A DNA stretch of 64,000 nucleotides. Source: a virus. The position numbers were made by a program, and so were the translations under genes. Location: the UHGV virus genome UHGV-1373362. The stretch is one strand, 5' to 3'. Each line of letters opens with the position of its first letter. The first letter of the stretch is position 1. The notes beneath the pieces were generated by a model. The model was not told the origin of the DNA, ran no database searches, and saw only the letters and a program-made list of their open reading frames with translations. Below, piece by piece: positions 3,187 to 18,502 of the stretch.

Positions 3187-3448
3187 ACTATAAGGGGCTA
3201 AATAAGATAACGCATCTGATGAGTCTTTGAAAATTAAGACGAAACACCTTCAATTAGGTGTCATGCGAGTGTTATTCATACAGTTGAAATAACGCTATTT
3301 GATTGCTAATACTCATGGTATGTGAATATAGTGAGTATTTAATTTAATATTAAGACAGTCTAGGAGTCTATAAAATTGTTACCGAAGAGACTAGAATGAA
3401 ACTTCTTTAATTAGAAGTCTAACAACTGAGTTAAAGATTAGTTCTATC

Positions 3449-6163: not shown

Positions 6164-6553
6164 ATGAAAAGAATTGAAGAAGTGTTACAGTCAGGAGATC
6201 ATTCCTATGCACATGTTATAGATCAGCTAGAAGCCATTTTGATGCCATTTGCACTATATGTTGCAGGTAAAACTCCGTACTGTGCAGGAGAAATCATCAA
6301 AATTAGCTTGGGCGAAGTTGAGGATAAAGAGGAATGGGTATTCAACTTTAATGATTCCTGCACAGTAACGTATGATTCCATTAAGGAAACAGTAAGAATC
6401 AATAACTCTGATGTAATCCACCTATGTAAGGATGATGCTAAGATTATTGATATTCTTATCAATGGTATCCTAAGGAAGAAACACGTAACTCCTGAGCCTG
6501 ATCAGAAGAAGGTATCTGAACTTCTGGAGGAGCTTGAGAGGATATTTAAGTAG
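6164..6553 (+). CDS. hypothetical protein
   Basis: 129-aa ORF. Confidence 0.45.
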   Translation: MKRIEEVLQSGDHSYAHVIDQLEAILMPFALYVAGKTPYCAGEIIKISLGEVEDKEEWVFNFNDSCTVTYDSIKETVRINNSDVIHLCKDDAKIIDILINGILRKKHVTPEPDQKKVSELLEELERIFK

Positions 6554-6665
6554 TAATCCATATTAAATGTTATTATTGATCATATTAAAAAATTATAATT
6601 AAGTAATTAATCAGAACAAGATTGGCTGTGAAGTTAGTCTTGTTCTAAACTTAAAACACATTATT

Positions 6666-6911
6666 ATGGCAAAAGTTATTAATTTTGGTACTCCTATCCT
6701 CCTTGGAGACTTAGGAAATGGACAAATTGCGGAAGTGCTAGAGTGGTTTGATTGTAATGTATCTGTTGGAGATATTATTCAAAGACAGAACAATATGATT
6801 TTTATACTAGGAAAGAGTCACTTTTACTCTGATATAAACCAGGGTTCAGAAAGGTGGAAATCAACAGCAAAGGTAAGAGTTCTACCTCAAGGTACTACCA
6901 TAATGCTATAA
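6666..6911 (+). CDS. hypothetical protein
   Basis: 81-aa ORF ending immediately before the structured ncRNA locus. Confidence 0.35.
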   Translation: MAKVINFGTPILLGDLGNGQIAEVLEWFDCNVSVGDIIQRQNNMIFILGKSHFYSDINQGSERWKSTAKVRVLPQGTTIML

Positions 6912-6912
6912 T

Positions 6913-7457
6913 GGGCTTGACAGGTTTTGACAAGTAATTACAAGGTAGGAAGACGTGTAGAGTTGGCACCAACTCTTATAAAATGATGCAAACAATAACT
7001 GGAGAAACTGAAGGTTTCAGAATGGCAGCCTAAGCTGCTGGCTTATTAGATATATCTAATTAAGTCGGGTTAATGGAGAAGACCTAGAAACAGAAGAGGT
7101 GTGGGAAGAAGCATTATAAAGCAGCCTACTTAACTTGAAAGCCAAAGGTTAGTAAAGCTGAAATTCTCTATGTCATTAAACAGGAATGCATGGTCTTAGG
7201 GTTGACTTACCCTTAATTATTGCACGTTCTCCAACGTAAATGGAGTGGTGGGGAGGATGACTTCGGTCAATCCAAGTTTGATAGTTTGTAATTTGGTCTA
7301 GTAAGGTTTGTGCTAAATTCCTGTCCTAGTAATCAAGGCACAGTCCAACAAAACTATCTACATGCCAGAACTCACTGGCTGATGTAATATAAATGAGACA
7401 CACGTTATCTTCTTATTGAGGATTATTTGGACGACGGTTCGAATCCGTCCAGGTCCA
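6913..7457 (+). ncRNA. candidate tmRNA (ssrA-like) or tRNA-like (Y-RNA-like) structured RNA
   Basis: 3' end GGACGACGGTTCGAATCCGTCCAGGTCCAC gives a T-arm (GACGG/CCGTC, loop TTCGAAT) followed by the acceptor 3' strand CAGGTCC+A. This is the same layout as the E. coli tmRNA 3' end. The complementary 5' strand GGGCTTG lies at 6913-6919, directly after the preceding stop codon. A short internal frame ...GFRMAA-TAA at about 6990-7033 ends in Ala-Ala, as tmRNA tag peptides do. About 780 nt here are noncoding. Confidence 0.3.
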
Positions 7458-7695
7458 CTAATGGATTAACGCCTATAATGAGTGCACTTGTTATAGGATG
7501 CTAATGATGCTACTTAGGAATAACTACTCCACAGGTAGGTAATTTAGAAACTTCTCAAAGTCATTGCAAGGGTGGAGAGAAGAAACTTATTACTGGTTTG
7601 GGAAATTTAAACCTATAGTGCTGGAGGCTAAATGATTTAGTAATGGGTTCGATTCCCTGTTAATCCACAGAACTAACTAATCAAATAATTAAAAC

Positions 7696-8148
7696 ATGGC
7701 AAAAATGACGTTAAATGAATTATCAGTAGCAGTGAACATGGTGAAAAAAGAGTCTCCTGCTACCTTTACATTAAGTAGTCTTAGACTTCAATTAAGGGAG
7801 ATCGGAGTTCCAATGTACAATGCATTTGCAAGGGCTTTGGTATCTAGAGGGTTTATTGAAAAAGTTGGACTTACACTAGCTGAGGGCTATCAATGGGCTA
7901 AGCCTGAACCTATCCACAAGGATATAGTAGAATCTCTTATAAAAGAAGCAAGGAAGAGATCTAGTGATCAAGCTAAGGCTCGCTGTAACAAGCTCCAAGT
8001 AGCACCTCAAGTAGAAGAAGTCCAAGAGGTAAAATTAACTCCCAAGGAGGAATTAATTAATCGTGCAATCAAGATTCTTCTTGATAACGGCTATAAGATC
8101 TCTAAGCCTATTACAACTTATGAAGAAGTAACCTCTTACGATTTGTAA
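7696..8148 (+). CDS. hypothetical protein
   Basis: 150-aa ORF. Confidence 0.45.
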   Translation: MAKMTLNELSVAVNMVKKESPATFTLSSLRLQLREIGVPMYNAFARALVSRGFIEKVGLTLAEGYQWAKPEPIHKDIVESLIKEARKRSSDQAKARCNKLQVAPQVEEVQEVKLTPKEELINRAIKILLDNGYKISKPITTYEEVTSYDL

Positions 8149-8149
8149 T

Positions 8150-8407
8150 ATGAAAAAGGTATATTATAAAATTATTGATCCAGTAAATGATATAACCTTG
8201 GCTGGATGTAGAGTATATCCTGATTATAATTATAGGAAGGTGGTAGAAGTGTTATTAAAGGAATTGGGAATAAATGCAGATGATTATCGGGAACGTACTC
8301 CGATTACTAATGCACAAGACTCAATCCCAGGTATGCCAGAGTATTATATGACACAAGGTTATGTATATGGCACTTCTAAACTAGTAAGTATAACGGTAGT
8401 AGGATAA
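8150..8407 (+). CDS. hypothetical protein
   Basis: 85-aa ORF, start adjacent to the upstream stop. Confidence 0.4.
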   Translation: MKKVYYKIIDPVNDITLAGCRVYPDYNYRKVVEVLLKELGINADDYRERTPITNAQDSIPGMPEYYMTQGYVYGTSKLVSITVVG

Positions 8408-8663
8408 CACCTAAACACGAAACTATCCTGATGATGGAATCTACTAATGTAGGTTGACTTAAGCGTGTATAAATAAAAGTTGAAACTCTAGCCCATGTTG
8501 GGTTAACATATGGAGAAATTCCTATGACTCGTATTTGTTTATGTGTAACCTTGATTAATGATCAACTAAAATACGAGGAGTCGGTAGTAAGAAAAATAAG
8601 ATAGATTATATAGATGATAATGAACGTGCTATATAATTATCTCAACATAAAAAGAGATAAGAA

Positions 8664-10412
8664 ATGGAATTTAGTAAGAAGGTTAAGAGCCTTGATAGGG
8701 CTGAGCAATCTCCTGAGAACAATGCGTTCATTAGGGAAGGGTTGAAAGAGTCTAATGTGACTCAAAGTGGTAATGGTGCTAAAAAGTATAGTACCAGTAA
8801 TGATGTATTTGTGGATAACTTTGCATCTATATCTAAGTTTGCAGAACCCCGTTCTTATGAGGATATAGCAAAAGATATGTACAAGTTGTGGAGTGTAAAT
8901 CCAGAAAAGTGTGTTAAGTTAGCCATCTATATTAGGATGATAACTAGGCAAACACAAGTACTCGTAGATAACAAGGTTTCTACAACTGAAGATGTACAAA
9001 GAGGACAGGGATTAAAGAATGAAGGTATTTTACGGTTTATTTGGTTGTCTATATATCATAACCAAGCATTCGTAGCCAATCTGCCATTCTTCATTAGCGC
9101 TGGTTCTTGGAAGGACATATTTGAGATGATGAGCCTTGATTTACAGTATCATGGTTGGGAAGGTCATAAATTGAATTGGAATTTCTTAAGTTCAACTGTA
9201 TTAGCCGGTTTAGCTAATGAAAATACATGTGAGCTAGTAAAGAAATATCTGCCTTCTATTAGATCTAGCAAAGACTGTGTTACTTTAGCTTCTAAGGCTA
9301 GGAGTATTGTAGGCAAATATATGGCTAATCGTATATTTGGGAAGAAGGGGGAAGAGAAGACAGAAGATACGATGAACCACATTCATCGTAAGTATCGTAA
9401 GTTCAAACAGAGTGGTACTGCACATGTTTGGCAGCAATTAATCGGACAAGGTAGAATGCTTGAAATTGATTTCAATACCATTCATGGACGTGCTTTAAGC
9501 CTATTGGTAGGCTCTAAATTCTTGAAAAATCAGGGATTGGTAGAGAAGTATTACCAATGGCTTGCATCCCGCAAAACGGTTAAATATACTGGATTTGTGC
9601 ATGAGCTGTTTGAACCACTTGGAAATAAATATTGGGCCTGCCCATTACCAGATTATCAGGAAATCACTATTAATAAGCAGTTTGAGCAATTAGTTGAAAC
9701 TGCCCGTAAGGATATGGACACTAACAGTAGGTTATTAGTCGTTAGAGACATTTCTAGCTCTATGACTTCACAGGCTGTGGGCAGTAACATGTCATCTTAC
9801 GCTATTGGTAAGGCAATGGCTCTCTATTTCTCTGCACTATTGGATGGTCCATTTAAGGATGCCTATGCTACATTTAGCAATACTTGTAAGCTTTGTAAAT
9901 GGCAAGGTAAGACTCCTATAGAGAAGTGGACAAACGATAATGATAGTAGATTTGGAAGTACCAACCTCCAATCTGTAGCAGATATGTTTGTCAAACTAAG
10001 AACTACAATGGGAGTATCCGAGAATGAGTTTCCAACAGGTGCACTGCTTATTAGTGATGGTGATTTTAACTGGTGTGGTACTGATGTGGCCAACTTTAAG
10101 GCATTTAGAGATAAACTACTTAAAGGTGGGTTTAGTGTGGAGTATGTAAACAACTTCAAATTAATCCTTTGGGATATTCCTAATGGATTCTATGGTAAGG
10201 GTAGACCTACTGTATTTGAAGATTTTGCTGATGCTCCAAATAACTTCTATATGAGTGGTTATGATCCAGCTGCTATAGCATTTATTATGGGAACTAAGGC
10301 ATTTAAAGCTACCCCCAAGAATGCAACAGAACTGTTCAATGCAGCTATGAACCAAACACTACTCAATATGGTAGTAATTCCTAAAGAGTATTATAAACGT
10401 AAAAAGAAGTAA
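8664..10412 (+). CDS. vWA domain protein, possibly TROVE/Ro60-like
   Basis: 582 aa. C-terminal von Willebrand A domain with MIDAS-like motif VVRDISSSM. Length and architecture (large N-terminal domain plus C-terminal vWA) resemble Ro60/TROVE-type proteins. The TROVE part is not verifiable by eye. Confidence 0.5.
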   Translation: MEFSKKVKSLDRAEQSPENNAFIREGLKESNVTQSGNGAKKYSTSNDVFVDNFASISKFAEPRSYEDIAKDMYKLWSVNPEKCVKLAIYIRMITRQTQVLVDNKVSTTEDVQRGQGLKNEGILRFIWLSIYHNQAFVANLPFFISAGSWKDIFEMMSLDLQYHGWEGHKLNWNFLSSTVLAGLANENTCELVKKYLPSIRSSKDCVTLASKARSIVGKYMANRIFGKKGEEKTEDTMNHIHRKYRKFKQSGTAHVWQQLIGQGRMLEIDFNTIHGRALSLLVGSKFLKNQGLVEKYYQWLASRKTVKYTGFVHELFEPLGNKYWACPLPDYQEITINKQFEQLVETARKDMDTNSRLLVVRDISSSMTSQAVGSNMSSYAIGKAMALYFSALLDGPFKDAYATFSNTCKLCKWQGKTPIEKWTNDNDSRFGSTNLQSVADMFVKLRTTMGVSENEFPTGALLISDGDFNWCGTDVANFKAFRDKLLKGGFSVEYVNNFKLILWDIPNGFYGKGRPTVFEDFADAPNNFYMSGYDPAAIAFIMGTKAFKATPKNATELFNAAMNQTLLNMVVIPKEYYKRKKK

Positions 10413-10413
10413 T

Positions 10414-11208
10414 ATGATTTCAATGAACACTATGCTTGCTAAGGTAGAGCACGCTGGATCATCCTTTAATAAGATGATTGCAGAGTACACACTATTCTTT
10501 AAGAACAAGCAATCAATGTTTAGAGGATTCAAGAAAACCTTTAAACCAAGAGAGGGTTTCAATGAAGACTCAAGGTACATGGGAACCGTTTTGGTAACAA
10601 CTACGGTAAATGAGAAGCTGGATTGGTTCGAAGAGAATGCAATACCTTATCTAAAGGATGTATTCTCAGTAGAGGCCACCAACTCAAGAGGTGCTGAACG
10701 TACAGAACTAGTAGTAGATGGTATATCATTTGGTAAACTAACTGCACTTGATTTGATGCGTCTAAAGACTATCCTTACTAATAAGGATATGGAATCTATG
10801 TATTCTAACATCCCAGTTCGTTCTGATTCTGAAGTATGGGAACCCTGCACTAATCCAGAATATGAAGGACGTGAGGTTTATCAAACTCCGATGACTGTTG
10901 GCGTGGTAAGAACATCAGAATCAGAGGAAGTAATCCTTAAAGATCCAAATCTTGATCCTGCCCATCTTCCTTCAAACTATAACGCTAAGGTTACAGTTAA
11001 GAAGAAAACAGTGGACACTGGTGATTATACATCACAAATGTACACGGGTGAGTGGACTCAAAGAGAGCGTGCTGAGTTACTAAGGAGAAGAAGTAAACTT
11101 CTCGCTGCAGTAACAGTAGCATTAAAGAAGATCAACGACAATGGAGTAGATCCTCAGAACTTGGACGTTGAATGTCTGATTGAATACTTGCACGGTAAAA
11201 AGAAATAA
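10414..11208 (+). CDS. hypothetical protein
   Basis: 264-aa ORF directly downstream of the vWA protein gene, likely co-transcribed. Confidence 0.45.
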   Translation: MISMNTMLAKVEHAGSSFNKMIAEYTLFFKNKQSMFRGFKKTFKPREGFNEDSRYMGTVLVTTTVNEKLDWFEENAIPYLKDVFSVEATNSRGAERTELVVDGISFGKLTALDLMRLKTILTNKDMESMYSNIPVRSDSEVWEPCTNPEYEGREVYQTPMTVGVVRTSESEEVILKDPNLDPAHLPSNYNAKVTVKKKTVDTGDYTSQMYTGEWTQRERAELLRRRSKLLAAVTVALKKINDNGVDPQNLDVECLIEYLHGKKK

Positions 11209-11518: not shown

Positions 11519-11592
11519 AGGGGTTTAACTCAATTGGTTAGAGTACATGAGTGTTAATCATGGTGTTGGGGGTTCGAGTCCCCCAACCCCTA
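11519..11592 (+). tRNA. tRNA-Asn (GTT)
   Basis: Acceptor AGGGGTT/AACCCCT, anticodon loop GTGTTAA, T-arm GGGGG-TTCGAGT-CCCCC. Confidence 0.8.
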
Positions 11593-11692
11593 CATTCGTT
11601 TTATTTAGGGTTTAACGGAGACGAGAATTTAGGTTTTTTATTGTATTTGGTTTCTGGTCTGCCAACCTGAGAAGGTGTAACAGGCCAAACAC

Positions 11693-11788
11693 AAAGGGAT
11701 GCTGGAATGGTATACAGGCTATCCATTGATGATAGTTTACACAATTCTAGGAAGTGTATGTCTGAGGGTTCGAATCCCTCTCCCTTTA
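11693..11788 (+). tRNA. tRNA, class-II-like with long variable arm; anticodon loop reads TTG (ambiguous)
   Basis: Acceptor AAAGGGA/TCCCTTT (7 bp perfect). T-arm GAGGG-TTCGAAT-CCCTC. Anticodon stem CTATC/GATAG with loop CATTGAT. About 28-nt variable region, 96 nt total. Non-canonical. Confidence 0.5.
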
Positions 11789-12060
11789 CATCTTGAAGAA
11801 TTTTTCATTTTTCTTGTCATTAAAGGGTTATTTACCTGTGAAGGCCAGTAACCCATTTTTATGTATTATTAATATTCCGTATCTATATACAACTTTAGTA
11901 TTAATATTATGATATTATATGTGGCATAAGTTTGTAATAACACTAATTACACATTTTAACATTAATATGTTTGTGGAGTCATAAAGAAGCAGTATCTTTG
12001 TGTCCATAACCGTTGGGATAACGGGAATGTGTTTGTGTTTTATTTATTCCCATTGTTGAG

Positions 12061-12144
12061 GGGAGTGCGCCAAAGTTGGAGAGTTGGGCTTGACTGTAAA
12101 TCAAGTGCCTTCGGGCTGAGTAGGTTCGAATCCTACCACTCCCA
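12061..12144 (+). tRNA. tRNA-Tyr (GTA)
   Basis: Acceptor GGGAGTG/CACTCCC, anticodon arm CTTGA-CTGTAAA-TCAAG, long variable arm, T-arm GTAGG-TTCGAAT-CCTAC. Confidence 0.8.
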
Positions 12145-12213
12145 CAACAAGATCTGTTAGAGTAACTTCTAACACTGGATGCATTGGTCTGGAGAGATAA
12201 ATGCATCAAAAAT

Positions 12214-12285
12214 GCAGGTGTAGCACAATGGTTAGTGCTCCAGTCTTCCAAACTGGAGATGAGGGTTCGATTCCCTTCACCTGCT
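12214..12285 (+). tRNA. tRNA-Gly (TCC)
   Basis: Acceptor GCAGGTG/CACCTGC, anticodon arm CCAGT-CTTCCAA-ACTGG, T-loop TTCGATT. Confidence 0.8.
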
Positions 12286-12365
12286 CAAAAAGCTGGTTGG
12301 TTGTGTTATTAGGGTACCCTAATACACTGGTTTGCACCAGCCTAAACAAAAATGCAGACAATCAT

Positions 12366-12437
12366 GGGCCGGTAGCATAATTGGGAATGCACTAGTTTTG
12401 CACACTGGAAGATTGGGTTCGAATCCCACCGTGTCCA
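12366..12437 (+). tRNA. tRNA-Ala (TGC)
   Basis: D-arm GCAT-AATTGGGA-ATGC, anticodon loop TTTGCAC, T-loop TTCGAAT. Acceptor GGGCCGG with one mismatch. Confidence 0.65.
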
Positions 12438-12728
12438 CACTTCCTTCTTCCTATAGGAAGTGTCTATAGGCGTGAATGAAAACCGACGGTTACAGGGTTC
12501 CCCAATACTCTCTGAGGGTAATACGAGAACGTTGCTTGAGGACACAACGTAATGAGTCCTTAGTATCACACTCACTTGAACGTGTGAAGAGCATTCGCTA
12601 ATAAGGCTCTTAATAAAGATTTTTAGTGGAGGTTGGATGAAAAGCTAGCAAAGTAATCCAATGACAGGGATCTTAGGTTATTAACTTATGAAGTTACAGT
12701 TATAATTTAGAGATTCCTTTATTAATAT

Positions 12729-12812
12729 CGCAGAGTCGAGAAGTGGTATCTCACTAGTCTCATAAGCTAGAGCATCCGAAAGATGTCGTAGGTTCGATTC
12801 CTACCTCTGCAA
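12729..12812 (+). tRNA. tRNA with CAT anticodon (Met/fMet/Ile2 type) and an unusual long variable arm
   Basis: Acceptor CGCAGAG/CTCTGCA with C1-A72 mismatch, which is initiator-like. D-arm GAGA-AGTGGTA-TCTC. Anticodon arm CTAGT-CTCATAA-GCTAG. 17-nt variable hairpin. T-arm GTAGG-TTCGATT-CCTAC. Confidence 0.6.
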
Positions 12813-12828
12813 CTAATTTAATATATTA

Positions 12829-12994
12829 TGGAAGAGAAACTAGACTTAATTATTCAAAAATTAAATGAATTGCTATATTTAGCAAAACGTATTCATAAAG
12901 ATACTGAACCATCTACTGAGAATAATGTCTCTGAGTATCTCCTTAATGTGTTAGGTGATGTAACTGGTGATATTCTTATGCAAGGATTCACTGG
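12829..12994 (+). CDS. small hypothetical protein (55 aa) inside the tRNA array
   Basis: ATG..TAA ORF MEEKLDLIIQKLNELLYLAKR... lying between tRNAs. Not in the supplied track because it is under 60 aa. Confidence 0.3.
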
Positions 12995-13006
12995 AAGACA
13001 ATAACG

Positions 13007-13081
13007 TGTGGGGTGGTAGCAGTTGGTAGCTCACTAGGCTCATAACCTAGAGGTCGGCGGTTCGAATCCGTCCCCCGCGCC
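13007..13081 (+). tRNA. tRNA with CAT anticodon (Met/Ile2 type), atypical acceptor
   Basis: Anticodon arm CTAGG-CTCATAA-CCTAG is perfect. T-arm GGCGG-TTCGAAT-CCGTC. The acceptor pairs only with G-U wobbles (TGTGGGG/CCCCGCG). Confidence 0.5.
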
Positions 13082-13165
13082 TATTACACCAGGCTATGCT
13101 GAGTGAATTTTCACTTAGGACTGTTGTAGTTACGAAGACAAAGGGTGAATAATTTGTCTATTTAT

Positions 13166-13186
13166 TGAAGGGAACAGACAGCAAAC
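13166..13186 (+). promoter_or_regulatory. conserved motif TGAAGGGAAC-nACAGCAAAC (copy 1 of 4)
   Basis: Near-identical 20-nt motif also at 14932, 16902 and 19554, each ahead of a tRNA sub-cluster. Confidence 0.4.
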
Positions 13187-13349
13187 ATCTTCATCTAATA
13201 ATTGAACTTCTAATTGACCGTGGGCGAACATCCCATAAATGTTCTAAGCTGTGAATAGCCCCTACTATGCTGGAACAAGTATAGTGTCGATTATCCTAAA
13301 TTGGGTGGATAAAAGACATAAAATAAAACTCCCGTGTTCCCTGTTTCAT

Positions 13350-13422
13350 AGGTCTATCCTCTAATTGGTTAGGAGACGTGACTGATACTCACGCAATCCC
13401 AGTTCAAGTCTGGGTAGACCTA
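13350..13422 (+). tRNA. tRNA-Ile (GAT)
   Basis: Acceptor AGGTCTA/TAGACCT, anticodon arm CGTGA-CTGATAC-TCACG, T-arm CCCAG-TTCAAGT-CTGGG. Confidence 0.8.
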
Positions 13423-13428
13423 CTTTAT

Positions 13429-13502
13429 AGTCCCTTAGCTCAGTTGGTGAGAGTGTCTGGCTTACATCCAGAAGGTCGTTGGTTCGAATCCAACAGGGAC
13501 TA
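13429..13502 (+). tRNA. tRNA-Val (TAC)
   Basis: Acceptor AGTCCCT/AGGGACT, anticodon arm TCTGG-CTTACAT-CCAGA, T-arm GTTGG-TTCGAAT-CCAAC. Confidence 0.8.
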
Positions 13503-13821
13503 CACTGGTATCATAGACGATTAACAAAATGATATAACTCTTAGTTAGTAATCCTGAACGATACATATAGGGAGTATCGGAAGAGTTATTCTGGTGGAGA
13601 ATCGGGAGTCCAGAACCTATCTTAGTAAAGCACGTGAGGCTAGCGTGACGTAGACATTCCTATCCCTGACAGCAAATATGGAATCCACATCGTAGGGTGG
13701 CATTGGTACTACAGCAAGGGTAGTTGTTTAACTGTAGTTATGTATGAACGTGTTAGTTGTCTTCATAGGAAGAAGTACAACTAGGTGTAGTCTCCACCAC
13801 CTTACAATAGTGGAGCACATG

Positions 13822-13897
13822 GGGAGTTAGCTCAGTTGGTTGGTAGCTTCGGACTGTTAATCCGATGGTCGTGGGTTCGAGTCCCAGAGGGGTGACA
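13822..13897 (+). tRNA. tRNA-Asn (GTT)-like, probable pseudo-tRNA (acceptor stem does not pair)
   Basis: Canonical D-arm, anticodon arm TCGGA-CTGTTAA-TCCGA and T-loop TTCGAGT. But the 5' GGGGAGT and 3' AGGGGTG strands are not complementary. Confidence 0.4.
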
Positions 13898-14077
13898 ACA
13901 CAAAGATTAACATATTTACTCATCTTAAACAGTAAAGTTATGAAATCATTATTAATTAAAGCTGTTAAGTGGTATGTCAAACAATCATCTATGACTTATG
14001 TTTGGCTACCGACAGGGACTTATCCAACTAAGGATTAAGTTCCATATTTAGAGGTGAGTAAGCTAAAGAACATTTAT

Positions 14078-14169
14078 GGAGGTGTAAGCCTAATTGGTAA
14101 GGCAGTAGTCTTGAAAACTACCAGTAATCGTGTAAAAGCGATGTGTCAGTTCGAGTCTGACTACCTCCT
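14078..14169 (+). tRNA. tRNA-Ser (TGA)
   Basis: Acceptor GGAGGTG/TACCTCC, anticodon arm GTAGT-CTTGAAA-ACTAC, long variable arm, T-arm GTCAG-TTCGAGT-CTGAC. Confidence 0.8.
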
Positions 14170-14204
14170 CTACCTATTATATAACAACTTAAACTAACTA
14201 AAAG

Positions 14205-14504
14205 ATGAATATGAGATTTGTATCAGTTACTAAACTAAGTAACAATCGTAAACGTAGATTATCTTTGGGTATACTTAGGGCAATTAACTCTAATGCTCAA
14301 TTAAATTCAATAGCTGACTCTGGATTTAGGGAAGGTAATGTCAAACTCTTAAATGATCGCATAGAGGAGCTTAAACTTATATTACTTTCCCCTTGGCCCA
14401 AGTTTCCCCGCAAGGACAAAAAGCTATACAAAAAGAATGCAATTGCACTATATAATGCATATGTATTTGTAAAGGGATGGCTAGAGGAAACCTTAAACCA
14501 GTAG
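14205..14504 (+). CDS. hypothetical protein
   Basis: 99-aa basic ORF inside the tRNA array. Confidence 0.4.
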   Translation: MNMRFVSVTKLSNNRKRRLSLGILRAINSNAQLNSIADSGFREGNVKLLNDRIEELKLILLSPWPKFPRKDKKLYKKNAIALYNAYVFVKGWLEETLNQ

Positions 14505-14761
14505 GGTATAGTAGGGATAACTCTAGATTGTATTTTAGGTTAATTATTAATGGTAATCATGTATTAGATGGGTTCTTTTCATTTAAGAAGGAATTGTTCT
14601 ACGTAACTACCAGAAATAAGATACTTAATGGCAATGACTGGGATATTCTTACTAGAGAGTTAAGTAAATTGGATTATGAATATTCTAACAATGTTGATGA
14701 TTACTATTACCAGCAATGGTTAGAGAGTAAAGTAATATTTAATCATGGGAATAATTACTGA
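14477..14761 (+). CDS. hypothetical protein
   Basis: 94-aa ORF overlapping the previous ORF end by 28 nt. Confidence 0.35.
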   Translation: MARGNLKPVGYSRDNSRLYFRLIINGNHVLDGFFSFKKELFYVTTRNKILNGNDWDILTRELSKLDYEYSNNVDDYYYQQWLESKVIFNHGNNY

Positions 14762-14931
14762 CATAGCACTATCGCAGTCTATTGGGGCTGTAATGGATGG
14801 TGCATTTATAGAAAGTGCTAAAGAAACTTTAGAAAAGGAAGAATCAACTAATGAAGCTTCAGAAGAACATAATGTTGGCAGAGGTTATTTGGAAACTCAT
14901 TCAGAACTTTTCTACTAAGGCATATTATTAA

Positions 14932-14953
14932 AGTGAAGGGAACTTACAGCAAA
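14932..14953 (+). promoter_or_regulatory. conserved motif GTGAAGGGAACTTACAGCAAAC (copy 2)
   Basis: Same motif as at 13166, 16902 and 19554. Followed by AATTGACCG about 30 nt downstream, as in copy 1. Confidence 0.4.
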
Positions 14954-15007
14954 CAATCATAGTATCAATCTTTTAAATTGACCGACTAAACATGTTCCCT
15001 GTTCCTT

Positions 15008-15081
15008 GCTCCGGTAGCTTAACTGAATAAAGCAGCATCCTTCTAAGATGCGTTATATGGGTTTGAGTCCCATCTGGAGTA
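15008..15081 (+). tRNA. tRNA-Arg (TCT)
   Basis: D-arm GCTT-AACTGAAT-AAGC, anticodon arm GCATC-CTTCTAA-GATGC, T-arm ATGGG-TTTGAGT-CCCAT. Confidence 0.75.
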
Positions 15082-15153
15082 CTAAGCGGGTTTTAAAACA
15101 AAATATTCTCCTTGTTACCGCTGACAGGGGTGCGACTGTTTAACGCACTACAT

Positions 15154-15226
15154 GGGGTTATAGCTCAGTTGGTAGAGCGAGGGATTGAAGATCCCTGCGT
15201 CGGCAGTTCGAATCTGTCTAACCCCG
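15154..15226 (+). tRNA. tRNA-Phe (GAA)
   Basis: Acceptor GGGGTTA/TAACCCC, D-arm GCTC-AGTTGGTA-GAGC, anticodon arm AGGGA-TTGAAGA-TCCCT, T-arm GGCAG-TTCGAAT-CTGTC. Confidence 0.85.
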
Positions 15227-15311
15227 CTTCGCTAATAAGTGTAATTCGACATGATATTAGATTTGATTAGTATTAGTGCAGAAGGTGTAGTGATACAGTT
15301 TCTGTGCGTCT

Positions 15312-15399
15312 GGAGAGTAAACCTTGATGGTGATAGGGACTACCTGCTAAGTAGTTTCGTACATAAAAAGTGTATGTGGTTCGATTCCACTGCTCTCCG
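15312..15399 (+). tRNA. tRNA-Ser (GCT)
   Basis: Acceptor GGAGAGT/GCTCTCC, anticodon arm ACTAC-CTGCTAA-GTAGT, long variable arm, T-loop TTCGATT. Confidence 0.75.
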
Positions 15400-15442
15400 C
15401 GAATGTTTGGGACTTTATTATAACTTTTAACATTAAATTATT

Positions 15443-15739
15443 ATGAATGAAGTTCAACCTCTTGATCCATCTACACTAGAACAGTCGGATCCTATTCCTA
15501 ATAGCATTATAGCTGTTATGAATCAATTGATTAAGAAAGGATGGAATGGTGCATGTAGCATCGTTCGAGTGAATGAGGCACTAGGTGTCATATATTTAGT
15601 TACAAACTTCCCCATTGAGGTTATTAAGAGAAATGGTTGGATAGAATCTGCTAAAGAGGTCTATCAACGAATTGGCTACTTGGTAACTGAGGTTGGAGAA
15701 GGTGATGACAGATATATGGAATTTCGTAAGGCTTCTTAA
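15443..15739 (+). CDS. hypothetical protein
   Basis: 98-aa ORF between tRNA-Ser and tRNA-Glu. Confidence 0.45.
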   Translation: MNEVQPLDPSTLEQSDPIPNSIIAVMNQLIKKGWNGACSIVRVNEALGVIYLVTNFPIEVIKRNGWIESAKEVYQRIGYLVTEVGEGDDRYMEFRKAS

Positions 15740-15743
15740 TACT

Positions 15744-15815
15744 GCTGGGTTCGAATAATGGTTAGTTCGACGCACTTTCGATGCGTAGATAGGGGTTCGA
15801 TTCCCCTACCCAGTA
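15744..15815 (+). tRNA. tRNA-Glu (TTC)
   Basis: Acceptor GCTGGGT/ACCCAGT, anticodon arm ACGCA-CTTTCGA-TGCGT, T-arm AGGGG-TTCGATT-CCCCT. Confidence 0.8.
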
Positions 15816-15999
15816 CCTTGTAGTCCTCCTTAACCCTTAATAGGGTAGTTAGGCTACGCTGTGAACGAACAGAGGAGGGGAGTTCACACGTTGGTTAGCG
15901 ACGTAGTACACAATGGTGGAATAGAAACGGCTAACATCCACTTTTGGTCATTCTTATAATACTAGTTAAATTCCGAAAGGGAGTTAGAATGGCCAATAT

Positions 16000-16071
16000 A
16001 CTCCTATCTACTAATGGTTAGGTAATTGCCCTCTCAAGGCAAAAATACGGGTTCGAATCCCGTTGGGAGTA
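16000..16071 (+). tRNA. tRNA-Glu (CTC)
   Basis: Acceptor ACTCCTA/TGGGAGT, anticodon arm TTGCC-CTCTCAA-GGCAA, T-arm ACGGG-TTCGAAT-CCCGT. Confidence 0.7.
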
Positions 16072-16214
16072 CTTAACTACTAGGTTGAACTCAAACTTCC
16101 GCCTCGCGAGCCAAATGTCTGAGGAGAAATTTAAAGGATTTTTAGATAGAAGGAATCCACATAGGATTTAAAACAGAAGAAATAGGGCTAATCCTTCATC
16201 CTAGTAGTATTAAC

Positions 16215-16285
16215 GAGTGTGAGGTGTACTGGTGGCATAAGCGACTGTCTATCGTGAGGAGGGGTTCGATTCCCACACATTCGGC
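16215..16285 (+). tRNA. degenerate tRNA-like sequence (possible Asp-GTC pseudo-tRNA)
   Basis: T-loop GGGGTTCGATTCCC and a candidate anticodon loop CTGTCTA. The D-arm and acceptor do not fold canonically. The track ORF 16224..16478 overlaps it, and the true CDS start is probably 16296. Confidence 0.25.
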
Positions 16286-16295
16286 AATTAAATTT

Positions 16296-16478
16296 ATTAT
16301 TATGTTAACAGAAGAAGAAGTAAAAAATTATTTGGCGGAACTTAAAGAACATGCTGAGTCTGGAGATCCAGAATGTTCTCACTATGATGCTGATAGAATC
16401 TTATGTGATATTGTATCTAAGTTGGGATATAAAGAAATCGTAGACATTTGGGAAAAAGTTCCTAAGTGGTATGCATAA
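16296..16478 (+). CDS. small hypothetical protein (60 aa)
   Basis: ATG at 16296 downstream of the tRNA-like element, sequence MLTEEEVKNYLAELKEH... Confidence 0.4.
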   Translation: MIMLTEEEVKNYLAELKEHAESGDPECSHYDADRILCDIVSKLGYKEIVDIWEKVPKWYA

Positions 16479-16544
16479 TTAACCTCCAGCTCACGAGGTA
16501 TATAAGAAAGGATGCCGGACTTGCAGGTGTAACGAGATAAATAC

Positions 16545-16616
16545 CTGCATTTTCGAGGCGATGGCGTAATTGGCTAACGTGCTGCCCTGTCACGGCAGAG
16601 TTTGGGGTTCGAGTCC
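16545..16616 (+). tRNA. tRNA-Asp (GTC)
   Basis: Acceptor GAGGCGA/TCGTCTC, anticodon arm CTGCC-CTGTCAC-GGCAG, T-loop GGGGTTCGAGTCCCC. Confidence 0.7.
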
Positions 16617-16901
16617 CCTCGTCTCGGCAAAAATTTGATGGATATGAAAGTATTTACTCCAGAGGATGCTAAGCAACACCATGTTGCTAGTATTCCAGAC
16701 TTCAGGACACTATTATAACTCGTATACTACGTTATAGTCCTGAGGAAATCACTAGATCATCTATATTTTCGAACAGGTGGTTAGACATAGAAGACCTATA
16801 CAGGCAAAATGGCTGGGAGGTTGAATATGACAAGCCAGCATACAATGAGAGTTATAGTGCTAGGTTTATATTTAAACCGAAGCAAAGTATTTAGAAATTT
16901 A

Positions 16902-16923
16902 TGAAGGGAACTTACAGCAAAAC
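16902..16923 (+). promoter_or_regulatory. conserved motif TGAAGGGAACTTACAGCAAAAC (copy 3)
   Basis: See copies at 13166, 14932 and 19554. Confidence 0.4.
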
Positions 16924-16953
16924 TTATCTAAATTCAATTGGTGATAGAAAGAC

Positions 16954-17001
16954 GTGGGTTCGAATCCCACCTATAACCGTCAAAGTCCTAATGGGTTATA
17001 G
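16954..17001 (+). other. tRNA-like fragment: T-arm plus acceptor-like hairpin (permuted order)
   Basis: T-arm GTGGG-TTCGAAT-CCCAC, then CTATAACC, a 15-nt loop, then GGTTATAG (8-bp perfect complement). Same architecture as 11357-11410. Confidence 0.3.
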
Positions 17002-17051
17002 TCGTCTAGTGGATAGGATGTATTAGAAATAGGCATAGTTCCCTGTTGTTT

Positions 17052-17134
17052 GCCGTCTTCGCATAGTGGTTGATTGCACTGGATTTGTAATCCAGCTTCG
17101 AAAGAACACGTCAGTTCGAATCTGACAGACGGCT
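17052..17134 (+). tRNA. tRNA-Thr (TGT) with unusually long variable arm
   Basis: Acceptor GCCGTCT/AGACGGC, anticodon arm CTGGA-TTTGTAA-TCCAG, 14-nt variable region, T-arm GTCAG-TTCGAAT-CTGAC. Confidence 0.7.
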
Positions 17135-17156
17135 CTAGTCTCATTGTCGTAAGGCG

Positions 17157-17585
17157 ATGAGACTTAATTTTTCTGAGATTGTTATATGTAAAATGAATTA
17201 TGAACGTATTATGGGTAGCTTTAAAGAATGTTTAAGAAAAAGTGGTCAAAGTGTGTTAGATGCAAGAGCACAGAACTTGTATGAAATGACCAAAATTGAG
17301 GAGGATAGATTCATTCAGGAATGCAAAATGAGAGTCTTGAGACTTCAAAATGAACTAAATACACATAGAGACTTATCTGTGAAGTCTACTACCTCATTGG
17401 AAGTAGGAAGTGGATTTATGCCTAAGGAGTGGGTTGCTAAACGCCACGATTTAGAACGTAAGCTTCGTGTGGCTAAAATCGAGTATGCTCTGGCATTAAA
17501 GGTTGATTCTGAGGAATTTCCTGCTGACGATGCTGAAGAGGTAATTGACGCTAAGGCATTGTTGGAGGAAGATAACATTAAATAG
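17157..17585 (+). CDS. hypothetical protein
   Basis: 142-aa ORF (alternative start at 17193). First gene of a three-gene operon-like block. Confidence 0.45.
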   Translation: MRLNFSEIVICKMNYERIMGSFKECLRKSGQSVLDARAQNLYEMTKIEEDRFIQECKMRVLRLQNELNTHRDLSVKSTTSLEVGSGFMPKEWVAKRHDLERKLRVAKIEYALALKVDSEEFPADDAEEVIDAKALLEEDNIK

Positions 17586-17586
17586 A

Positions 17587-18501
17587 ATGGGAGCAGGTAG
17601 TTATTCATATGCAGCTTATTCTGCCATATCTGATGCAAGAGGGCTTGCGAGTGCAACGACAGAAGCCCTATTTAAGAATAGGCACATTTCTGTAGACGCT
17701 GACATTAAAACCTCAAATGTTAATGCAAGACTCTTTAATACAGAAGTAAAGAAAGAAGCTATTAACGTGGGTGTTAGAGAGTGTAGAGATACTGAGGAAC
17801 ATCCTGATGTTACCCCAATCATCATTGCTCTTGACGTTACAGGTTCAATGCGTAATACACCCCATACAATGCTTAGAGACCAATTCCCTAAGATAATGGG
17901 TGTCTTACAACAATTAAATGTTAAAGATCCCCAAATCTTGTTTATGGCAGTAGGGGATCACGAGTGGGATAGATACCCCATTCAGGTGTGTCAGTTTGAA
18001 TCTGATACTACTAAGCTGGTAGATTCTCTACAAACTCTAGTATTAGAGGGGGGAGGTGGTCCAAATTATGGTGAGAGTTACCTATTAGCTTGGTTAATAG
18101 CTGGGTATCATACTGAAACTGATGCATGGTACAAGAGGGGTAAAAAGGGTTACTTATTTACCATTGGTGATGAGGAAACTCTTAGAGAGGTTGATGAGGA
18201 ATACTTATCGGATGGATTGGGTTATCAGAAAGGCGCTGGAGTTATTACAGCTAAAGAGGCCTTAAAGAAAGCTAAGGAACAGTATAACGTATTTCACATT
18301 CACATTACTAATGGAAGCCGTGGTTCAACTCCACGACCATCTTGGAGAAGTTATTTGGGTCAAAATGTTCTAACATCTGACTCTAAGGACATTCATACTG
18401 TAATCGGGGAGGTCATTAGTAAACATGAAGGGATTAACAACCTGGAAGTTACTGATGAAAACTCTCCATCTAATCAAGAAGAAGCAAATTATACTTATTA
18501 A
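17587..18501 (+). CDS. vWA domain protein (TerY-like?)
   Basis: MIDAS motif IIIALDVTGSM near the N-terminus of a roughly 305-aa protein. Start taken at the ATG after the upstream stop; the in-frame ATG at 17545 would overlap the upstream gene. Confidence 0.6.
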   Translation: MGAGSYSYAAYSAISDARGLASATTEALFKNRHISVDADIKTSNVNARLFNTEVKKEAINVGVRECRDTEEHPDVTPIIIALDVTGSMRNTPHTMLRDQFPKIMGVLQQLNVKDPQILFMAVGDHEWDRYPIQVCQFESDTTKLVDSLQTLVLEGGGGPNYGESYLLAWLIAGYHTETDAWYKRGKKGYLFTIGDEETLREVDEEYLSDGLGYQKGAGVITAKEALKKAKEQYNVFHIHITNGSRGSTPRPSWRSYLGQNVLTSDSKDIHTVIGEVISKHEGINNLEVTDENSPSNQEEANYTY

Positions 18502-18502
18502 G

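Follow-up and report, generated by a model that had tools for sequence, protein, structure and literature searches.

The interval free of open reading frames (ORFs) in UHGV virus genome UHGV-1373362 probably contains two adjacent, co-oriented RNA genes, namely a gene for transfer-messenger RNA (tmRNA) at 6913–7457 and, at 7463–7667, a gene for a smaller structured RNA resembling transfer RNA (tRNA), which we call element 2. The DNA analyzed, hereafter the window, is a stretch of 64,000 nt (64 kb), and positions refer to it unless stated otherwise. We assign this reading a probability of about 0.8, and the figure covers the joint explanation of a complete one-piece tmRNA plus a separate tRNA-like element 2. 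Both RNA genes are located at the head of the tRNA and early-gene region of a large crAss-like gut phage. An earlier note on the same DNA had treated the locus as a single RNA of ~780 nt, either a phage tmRNA or a Y-RNA-like (YrlA-type) RNA. The single RNA proved to be two adjacent ones, and the tmRNA alternative was borne out for 6913–7457 by a covariance-model match, covariation, and a conserved in-frame tag ORF. The interval itself, 6912–7695 (784 nt), is flanked by an 81-aa ORF (6666–6911) and a 150-aa ORF (7696–8148). No ORF of ≥30 aa overlaps it on either strand, the longest being 29 aa, so the ORF-free locus described in the earlier note is real.

Identification of the tmRNA gene

The Rfam tmRNA model RF00023, searched against the whole 64-kb window, matched 6913–7460 with 80.5 bits (gathering score, 47; E = 1.2e-29). 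The match was full length, covering model positions 1–374. The covariance-model check that the earlier note had proposed was thus positive for tmRNA, whereas the Rfam Y_RNA and YrlA models gave no match at E ≤ 10 in 6500–8700 and none above the gathering score in the window. The features of the tmRNA gene are as follows.

6913–7457, + strand: gene for a one-piece tmRNA (SsrA), spanning G1 through the discriminator A (RF00023 match, covariation)
6913–6919, + strand: 5′ strand of the acceptor stem, GGGCUUG, pairing with 7450–7456 and forming G3:U70
6959–6989, + strand: candidate pseudoknot 1 (PK1), just 5′ of the resume codon
7001–7033, + strand: tag frame encoding GETEGFRMAA, with resume codon GGA at 7001–7003 and stop codon UAA at 7031–7033 in the loop of hairpin 7025–7039
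7433–7449, + strand: T-arm GACGG-UUCGAAU-CCGUC (sequence and Rfam alignment)
7450–7456, + strand: 3′ strand of the acceptor stem, CAGGUCC, followed by the discriminator A at 7457 (sequence and Rfam alignment)

The terminal motifs named in the earlier note (GGGCTTG at 6913–6919, the T-arm at 7433–7449, CAGGTCC at 7450–7456, and A at 7457) are all in place, and the two 7-mers, GGGCUUG and CAGGUCC, pair completely. The D-loop analogue with its GG is ACAGGUUUUGAC, which was aligned to the Rfam model with a posterior probability near 1. In PK1, the hairpin AGAGUU (6959–6964)/AACUCU (6971–6976) is conserved, and its loop nucleotides GCA (6966–6968) pair with UGC (6987–6989). In the PK2–PK4 region, where inserts of about 80 and 151 nt set the tmRNA apart from the Rfam model, co-varying hairpins appear in the RNAalifold consensus, which represents secondary structure without pseudoknots. 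The tmRNA is ~545 nt long here and 534–594 nt in its relatives, compared with 374 positions in the model.

Homologues were found in one fecal "Bacteriophage sp." record and, in larger number, in IMG/VR contigs of 145–190 kb. Those at related viral loci exceeded the Rfam threshold (69–87 bits), and an invariant 20-mer of the tmRNA core was present in 91 viral contigs. The RNAalifold consensus of 13 phage copies contained 117 pairs, 34 of them compensatory. Pair counts were made on a hand-specified core that comprised the acceptor stem and T-arm, three segments of P2, and the hairpins of PK1 and the tag end. In these core helices, 99.2% of cells were paired and 18 of the 50 pairs had changed on both sides, compared with 1–4 in slid controls, in which the 3′ partners were moved by 1–3 columns. 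None of 500 shuffles reached the observed core-pairing values. Within the acceptor stem, all 13 copies kept G1-C, G2-C, and G3:U unchanged, and covariation was seen at pairs 4, 5, and 7. The discriminator A was invariant in all copies compared, and four of the five T-stem pairs co-varied.

The resume codon, which the earlier note had suggested looking for, was set by the Rfam alignment at GGA (7001–7003), directly after AAUAACU. The frame reads GGA GAA ACU GAA GGU UUC AGA AUG GCA GCC UAA (7001–7033), and its last five codons, AGA ATG GCA GCC TAA in the DNA (7019–7033), correspond to the short frame ending in RMAA-stop that had been likened to a proteolysis tag. Other copies encode GNTEVRMAA, GNTVYRMVA, AEIAPVRMAA, ATTSVRMAA, ANYSEVRMAA, and ANNSVRLAA. 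Thus, seven different tags were observed, all in frame and all ending in [VFY]R[ML][AV]A. The resume codon specifies Gly or Ala in every copy, the indels seen in the aligned tag region have lengths divisible by three, and the loop of a co-varying hairpin contains the stop codon. The frame, kept through substitutions and such indels, thus behaves like a translated tag rather than a relic. These results identify 6913–7457 as a tmRNA, with a covarying structure and a conserved tag frame. It is a new, long representative; phage tmRNAs as such were already known.

On this basis, a pathway can be proposed. The tmRNA would be cut from a longer transcript by RNase P at G6913, trimmed at the 3′ side to A7457, and completed by CCA addition. 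Host alanyl-tRNA synthetase, directed by G3:U70 and A73, would charge it with alanine. Because neither a Pfam scan of 20 ORFs nor tblastn across the 64-kb window found an SmpB gene, the likely partner is host SmpB. With SmpB and EF-Tu, the charged tmRNA would enter ribosomes stalled on broken or non-stop mRNAs. Translation would then move to the internal frame, append (A)GETEGFRMAA, and end at the UAA. In this way, ribosomes would be recycled during infection and truncated proteins would receive a C-terminal, degron-like RMAA tag, presumably to the benefit of the phage.

Structure of element 2

The second RNA begins 5 nt past the tmRNA discriminator. A common fold was obtained with RNAalifold from six copies, and a covariance model, R1, was built from the copies of element 2.

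7463–7667, + strand: element 2, tRNA-like structured RNA of 205 nt (RNAalifold, covariance model R1, covariation)
7463–7470 and 7659–7666, + strand: terminal 8-bp stem, GGAUUAAC and GUUAAUCC, followed by A7667 (RNAalifold)
7645–7657, + strand: T-arm with T-loop, GGGUUCGAUUCCC (the GGGTTCGATTCCC region), just inside the terminal stem

The second T-loop noticed in the earlier note, GGGTTCGATTCCC at 7645–7657, therefore belongs to element 2. At the position of a D-arm, element 2 has a 7–11-bp hairpin with a co-varying stem and an invariant GUGCAC loop, which is not a D-arm. The anticodon-stem position is taken by a 5-bp stem, GCUAA/UUAGU or GUUGA/UCAAC, with three compensatory pairs, and this stem opens into a multi-hairpin domain of ~130 nt. 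Among 10 distinct copies, 99% of cells were paired (33–52% when slid) and 10 pairs had changed on both sides (0–2 in the slid controls). The minimum free energy is −58.5 kcal/mol for the plus strand and −40.8 kcal/mol for the minus strand, and 10 of the 59 consensus pairs are G-U, indicating that the fold is specific to the plus strand. Known copies match R1 at 218–239 bits. A search of element 2 against Rfam returned nothing at E ≤ 10.

Other structural details were also observed. The GUGCAC palindrome (window 7478–7489; columns 18–25 of alignment A6) is invariant on its co-varying stem; a kissing-loop dimer or a protein-recognition site is a possibility for this loop. Beside the 5-bp stem at the anticodon position, UGAUG faces AUGA, and tandem G-A pairs could form there. 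We also considered element 2 as a coding or tag-bearing RNA and rejected this, as its short frames were unconserved between the two clades when the alignment was inspected by eye.

Distribution and boundaries of element 2

A blastn search of phage records matched 7504–7669, at 83–84% identity, to sequence in crAss001, a Bacteroides phage, and in 26 related isolates, where it falls in a gap without annotation. In crAss001, element 2 is flanked by gp98 and the HNH endonuclease gp99, and gp96, which is a true Pfam TROVE protein, is encoded about 1 kb downstream of it.

MH675552, 99,282–99,490 region: crAss001 copy of element 2, with the G of GGGCUAA as predicted 5′ end and ...UUAGUCCA as predicted 3′ end

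With R1, element 2 was detected in 1 of 54 crAss001-type TROVE loci, which was crAss001 itself, in 8 of 80 loci of relatives of the 582-aa protein encoded downstream in the window (DUF2828; see below), and in 3 of 78 viral loci with a tmRNA, each on a contig that was known beforehand to carry it. A metagenome scan for divergent copies yielded 10 contigs, all from the same two clades, and one copy was truncated at its 3′ side. This copy (550–757 of locus L235; L numbers denote our loci) has lost its 3′ third, namely the 3′ strand of a long-range stem together with the T-arm and the terminal strand. Beyond the deletion point, the truncated copy continues into sequence that crAss001 has downstream of element 2, and it sits 5 nt after an ordinary tRNA. 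In 185,579 bacterial species genomes, a 21-nt core of element 2 had a single match, a chance one inside a GC-rich coding region; a host origin of element 2 was rejected on this ground.

The cassette has defined boundaries. In phages lacking element 2, the tmRNA 3′ end (...GUCCAC) runs directly into other sequence, often the next gene, whereas in phages having it, element 2 forms a precise insert that itself ends in ...AUCCAC. Furthermore, in crAss001, L007, L008, and L235, element 2 follows a tRNA or an orphan T-arm and has no accompanying tmRNA; in all cases it starts 3–8 nt past a tRNA-like 3′ end. These insert and no-insert boundaries, together with the occurrence without tmRNA, indicate two RNAs and not a single one. 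Close relatives of crAss001 (e.g., L056) lack exactly the segment comprising the HNH gene, the orphan T-arm, and element 2; the break has the 3′ end of tRNA-Arg on one side and that of element 2 on the other.

Two further observations concern the tRNA genes of these phages. In crAss001 (MH675552; L001, 2581–3186), the HNH gene gp99 stands between tRNA-Arg(cct) and the orphan T-arm, AGAGGUUCAAGCCCUCU-UGGGGGU-A. The orphan acceptor strand pairs with the 5′ strand of tRNA-Arg better than does the tRNA's own strand, which has a C2-A71 mismatch, and the gp99 segment looks like a homing-endonuclease insertion that duplicated the 3′ half of the tRNA. In addition, a tRNA of ~130–145 nt is conserved just downstream of the TROVE gene in crAss001-type phages (L001:6084–6228, L045:5559–5689, L044:5566–5696, L037:5817–5944, and L039:5828–5962). 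In crAss001 it was called by ARAGORN as tRNA-Asn(gtt) with a 70-nt intron, at a position for which no annotated feature was listed in the crAss001 stretch compared.

Possible nature of element 2

Element 2 looks like an accessory gene of tRNA arrays rather than a part of the tmRNA, possibly moved by recombination or homing. The acceptor-like stem and T-arm would let tRNA-processing enzymes release it. Our working guess is that it would then be a stable tRNA mimic acting as a decoy or a scaffold. Taken as a whole, the reading that element 2 is the first of an undescribed class of phage tRNA-like noncoding RNAs is tentative, and we hold it with considerable doubt. It comprises, jointly, a self-contained cassette of ~205 nt behind tRNA and tmRNA 3′ ends that would be released by host tRNA-processing enzymes, would move between distantly related crAss-like phages including the cultivable crAss001, and would act early in infection as a tRNA mimic, e.g., a decoy for tRNA-targeting host defences. 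The alternative role would be that of a scaffold, dimerising through the GUGCAC loop, for a phage or host RNA-binding protein. The tRNA gene cluster of phage T4 encodes the species 1 and species 2 RNAs (rnaC/rnaD), stable non-tRNA RNAs of about 120–140 nt. They resemble element 2 in being small, in lying in a phage tRNA cluster, and in being freed by the tRNA-processing machinery; they are shorter, and the likeness is one of description only.

Alternatively, element 2 might be a mobile or recombination-prone DNA cassette of tRNA arrays without an RNA function, for example one carried along by the neighboring HNH homing endonuclease; its conservation would then stem from recent horizontal transfer. 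The sporadic distribution and the boundaries exactly at tRNA-like 3′ ends are consistent with this, as are the HNH endonuclease gene adjoining element 2 in crAss001 and L007, the >80% identity between phage groups whose flanks share no DNA similarity, the truncated copy, and the absence from the 185,579 bacterial species genomes. However, the differences between the clades are concentrated as compensatory changes (10 pairs in 5 helices, with 99% of pairing kept), and ten G-U pairs accompany a plus-strand-specific fold. Moreover, element 2 is always oriented like the tRNA or tmRNA genes, and no HNH gene lies near the window-type copies. We consider a mere DNA cassette without an RNA function unlikely.

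Relationship to the Ro60-like protein and Y RNAs

Known bacterial and phage Y RNAs have tRNA-like modules and are encoded beside Ro60; in those of the YrlA type, the ends form a Ro-binding stem with GNCGAAN0-1G, accompanied by T- and D-arms (PMC4201824). In Thermus phage phiLo, Ro60 binds two RNAs, Yrl1 and Yrl2, encoded upstream of its gene (PMC12135203). The genes and the RNA downstream of the two RNA genes that bear on this question are listed here.

8397–8493, + strand: RAGATH-34-like RNA (33.1 bits; gathering score, 60.7), with one hairpin shortened
8664–10412, + strand: Ro60-like protein of 582 aa, with a helical-repeat N-terminal domain plus a von Willebrand factor A (vWA) domain whose MIDAS motif (metal ion-dependent adhesion site) reads D362-x-S-x-S
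10414–11208, + strand: DUF7873 protein (Pfam PF25283, E = 1e-28), starting 2 nt past the stop codon of the Ro60-like gene

The 582-aa ORF is present at 8664–10412, where the earlier note had placed a vWA protein of Ro60-like architecture. Its Pfam assignment is DUF2828/DUF7788 and its PHROG is 850, "RNA-binding protein." No match to Pfam TROVE (PF05731) was obtained, and a profile search of the sequences of the Protein Data Bank (PDB) returned no Ro60. An hhalign comparison with the crAss001 TROVE family gave 46% probability, covering only the MIDAS region. The AlphaFold model (23 homologues; mean predicted confidence, pLDDT, 74) comprises a helical-repeat domain and an α/β domain. In a Foldseek search of the PDB with this model, the six best matches were all Ro60, with full-length alignments, E values of 3e-7 to 2e-5, TM-scores of 0.31–0.42, and 13–15% sequence identity. 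The protein is thus predicted to be Ro60-like at the level of the fold, in a family that Pfam does not label as TROVE. The proposed Ro60-like architecture consequently holds for the modelled fold and not for Pfam TROVE; the lack of a TROVE domain, which the earlier note had regarded as counting against its proposal, is confined to the sequence level. Like Ro60/Rsr proteins, including phiLo Ro60 (PDB 9L5Y), the 582-aa protein combines helical repeats with a vWA domain and has an intact DxSxS MIDAS, here in a predicted fold. Unlike them, it has no Pfam TROVE domain, its identity to them is low, and its TM-scores reach only 0.31–0.42. As for its neighbor, the DUF7873 gene adjoins the Ro60-like gene in 25 of 78 loci, all from the close family, and its AlphaFold model (pLDDT 82) had no PDB fold match at E < 1e-3. 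With no fold match and a linkage limited to the close family, DUF7873 was set aside as an informative operon partner.

The question is then whether element 2, or the locus as a whole, is a YrlA-type Y RNA of the phage Ro60-like protein, an RNA that would occupy the ring of the protein and link it to a host exonuclease such as PNPase. In the window, the gene with the Ro60 fold lies 1 kb downstream, and the crAss001 copy has a true Pfam TROVE gene 1 kb downstream; the tRNA-like modules of known Y RNAs (PMC4201824) and the two upstream RNAs of phiLo Ro60 (PMC12135203) would agree with such a partnership. Similarly to YrlA, element 2 is small and structured, has a tRNA-type T-arm, and stands upstream of a Ro60-family gene in a phage, and the YrlA of M. 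smegmatis likewise has a 7-bp acceptor stem, being cleaved by RNase P and provided with CCA. In contrast, beyond the negative Rfam result at this locus, Y-RNA families gave no Rfam match above the gathering score near 30 other Ro60-like genes, which sit in tRNA arrays, some also with a tmRNA. GNCGAAN0-1G is absent throughout 6913–8664. In element 2, the RNA ends pair in an acceptor-like helix that abuts the T-arm and is not a Ro-binding stem, and neither the GNCGAA/CGAA bulge motif nor a D-arm is found. At ~205 nt and with no Rfam match, element 2 also exceeds YrlA (about 100–130 nt), and it is absent from most genomes with a Ro60-like gene. Because it is present in only 1 of 54 TROVE loci and 8 of 80 DUF2828 loci, an obligatory partnership with Ro60-family genes was rejected. 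The Y-RNA alternative of the earlier note thus failed on the model searches, the motif, the Ro-binding stem, and the weak linkage, and we regard it as quite improbable.

The constant RNA neighbor of the Ro60-like gene is instead RAGATH-34, which an nhmmer profile placed 225–430 nt upstream of the gene in 22 of 80 loci. At homologous positions in related phages it scored 72–74 bits, with copies at L005:2453–2562(−) and L006:4815–4912 and in L233 and L238–L241. RAGATH-34 may be a Y-RNA-like partner of the Ro60-like protein or a processing element, a lead that is only positional and confined to one phage family. The motifs CUGAUGA and CGAAAC of this RNA recall the hammerhead core. In the tRNA arrays of distant phages carrying a DUF2828 gene, we also observed matches to the abiF RNA motif (50 bits; gathering score, 37) at L087:2204–2241 and L095:1959–1996.

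Weighing of the two-gene reading

Several points count against the reading of the interval as a complete tmRNA plus element 2. The CCA of the tmRNA is not encoded: the genome reads CUA after A7457, so CCA would need post-transcriptional addition, and the Rfam match runs past A7457 to 7460 by aligning ACUA to ACCA. The second stem of PK1 is weak, with 3 bp and one co-varying pair (UA in 6, CG in 4, and UG in 1). The middle of the tmRNA is ~170 nt longer than the model and was poorly aligned (posterior 0.2–0.5). ARAGORN made no tmRNA call at default settings, and with -m -ps70 it gave only spurious "permuted" calls. SmpB, missing from the window, could lie outside it. A scan for σ70-type promoters and terminators found sites no more often than by chance; Bacteroidota and crAss promoters fall outside that scan. 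For element 2, only two sequence clades are represented, so the covariation reflects few independent events, and the 3′-truncated copy implies that element 2 is dispensable and can decay.

Two other explanations concern the individual genes. Element 2 might be a tRNA gene, aberrant or interrupted by an intron, from which a normal decoding tRNA is produced once an insert of ~130 nt has been removed. Its acceptor-like stem of 7–8 bp, its T-arm, and the 5-bp stem where an anticodon stem is expected would suit such a gene, and intron-containing tRNAs occur in these phages (the crAss001 tRNA-Asn with its 70-nt intron). Nevertheless, ARAGORN -i made no call at default thresholds and RF00005 gave no match; a hairpin of 7–11 bp stands in place of a D-arm; the insert falls short of the size of a group I intron and has no Rfam intron match; and an anticodon loop cannot be reconstructed. 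This makes a decoding tRNA very improbable. Finally, it is barely credible that the tmRNA-like gene has become an inactive relic without trans-translation, whether a captured host ssrA or an attachment-site remnant, for although its ~545 nt against 374 model positions, poorly aligned center, lack of an encoded CCA, and omission by ARAGORN might hint at decay, the gene is full length and not a 3′ fragment, its acceptor identity elements are invariant, its covariation is strong, it is conserved in at least 91 viral contigs, and its frame survives multiple-of-three indels and amino-acid changes across phages whose neighboring proteins are 53–70% identical.

Phage context of the locus

The 64-kb window covers the early/replication part of a phage from the human gut. 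Among its gene products are NrdD, helicases, a DNA ligase, RNase H, and adenylosuccinate synthetase, and the nearest annotated relatives of its helicase are from Crassvirales phages (27–33% identity). ARAGORN detected 24 tRNA genes downstream of the two RNA genes, at 11519–24824 of the 64-kb window, and the leading tRNA block of the source phage fits the large "zeta"-type crAss-like phages. The corresponding region of crAss001 is transcribed early (PMC8375218). In the literature on crAss-like phages, we found tmRNA in methods sections only and TROVE only as an early gene of crAss001, and a review of the large zeta-type phages (PMC12386605) mentions neither tmRNA nor TROVE.

Other features of the window were as follows. 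The tRNA array includes an extra weak Rfam tRNA match at 13827–13888, and several of its tRNAs are unusually long, e.g., a tRNA-Ile of 97 nt (11693–11789). No suppressor anticodons were seen among the 24 window tRNAs. Upstream of the RNA locus and on the same strand, a RAGATH-1 hammerhead ribozyme, a self-cleaving RNA, is located at 3352–3424 (+) with 69 bits (gathering score, 56.3). The adenylosuccinate synthetase gene (18425–19546, +) and a complete gene for a P-type cation-transport ATPase of 831 aa (29207–31702, +) are both unusual auxiliary genes for a phage.

Comparison with known tmRNAs and implications

Phage-encoded tmRNAs are known from huge phages (PMC7162821). The window tmRNA resembles bacterial and phage tmRNAs (RF00023) in its full model match, the acceptor stem with G3:U70 and A73, the T-arm, the D-loop analogue with GG, the long P2 helix, the hairpin of the candidate PK1 5′ of the resume codon, and the 10-codon tag ending in ...AA with its stop codon in a hairpin loop. 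As for known phage tmRNAs, it lies beside a tRNA array in a large phage. However, it differs from bacterial and phage tmRNAs in its expanded PK2–PK4 region, from the usual ...ALAA tag in having an Arg conserved at −4 ([VFY]R[ML][AV]A), and from known tmRNAs in being undetected by ARAGORN. Some huge phages encode SmpB, whereas none was found in the window. At ~545 nt it is also longer than the tmRNAs of crAss001-type phages (320–405 nt).

Such normal-length tmRNAs (70–96 bits) were observed upstream of the TROVE gene in several crAss001-type phages (L059:1215–1537, L045:2748–3153, L061:2559–2961, and L044:3241–3559), and tmRNAs also occur near DUF2828 genes in distant phages (L087 and L108). 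Thus, three phage groups have a tmRNA and a Ro60-family gene <4 kb apart; a shared location in tRNA arrays may be the only reason.

ARAGORN is the tmRNA finder inside standard phage pipelines. Since it misses the long form that the Rfam covariance model finds, tmRNAs are probably under-counted in gut viromes. Element 2 adds a structured, phage-only, uncatalogued RNA, and it is present in crAss001, which can be grown, as can Bacteroides intestinalis APC919/174. The crAss-like phages rank with the most abundant viruses of the human gut. A ribosome-rescue RNA of their own, near a Ro60-like gene and a tRNA array, is carried by many large crAss-like phages and some crAss001-type phages, which adds to the picture of phage takeover of host translation and RNA quality control. 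The Arg-bearing tags, unlike ...ALAA, may change the fate of the tagged proteins.

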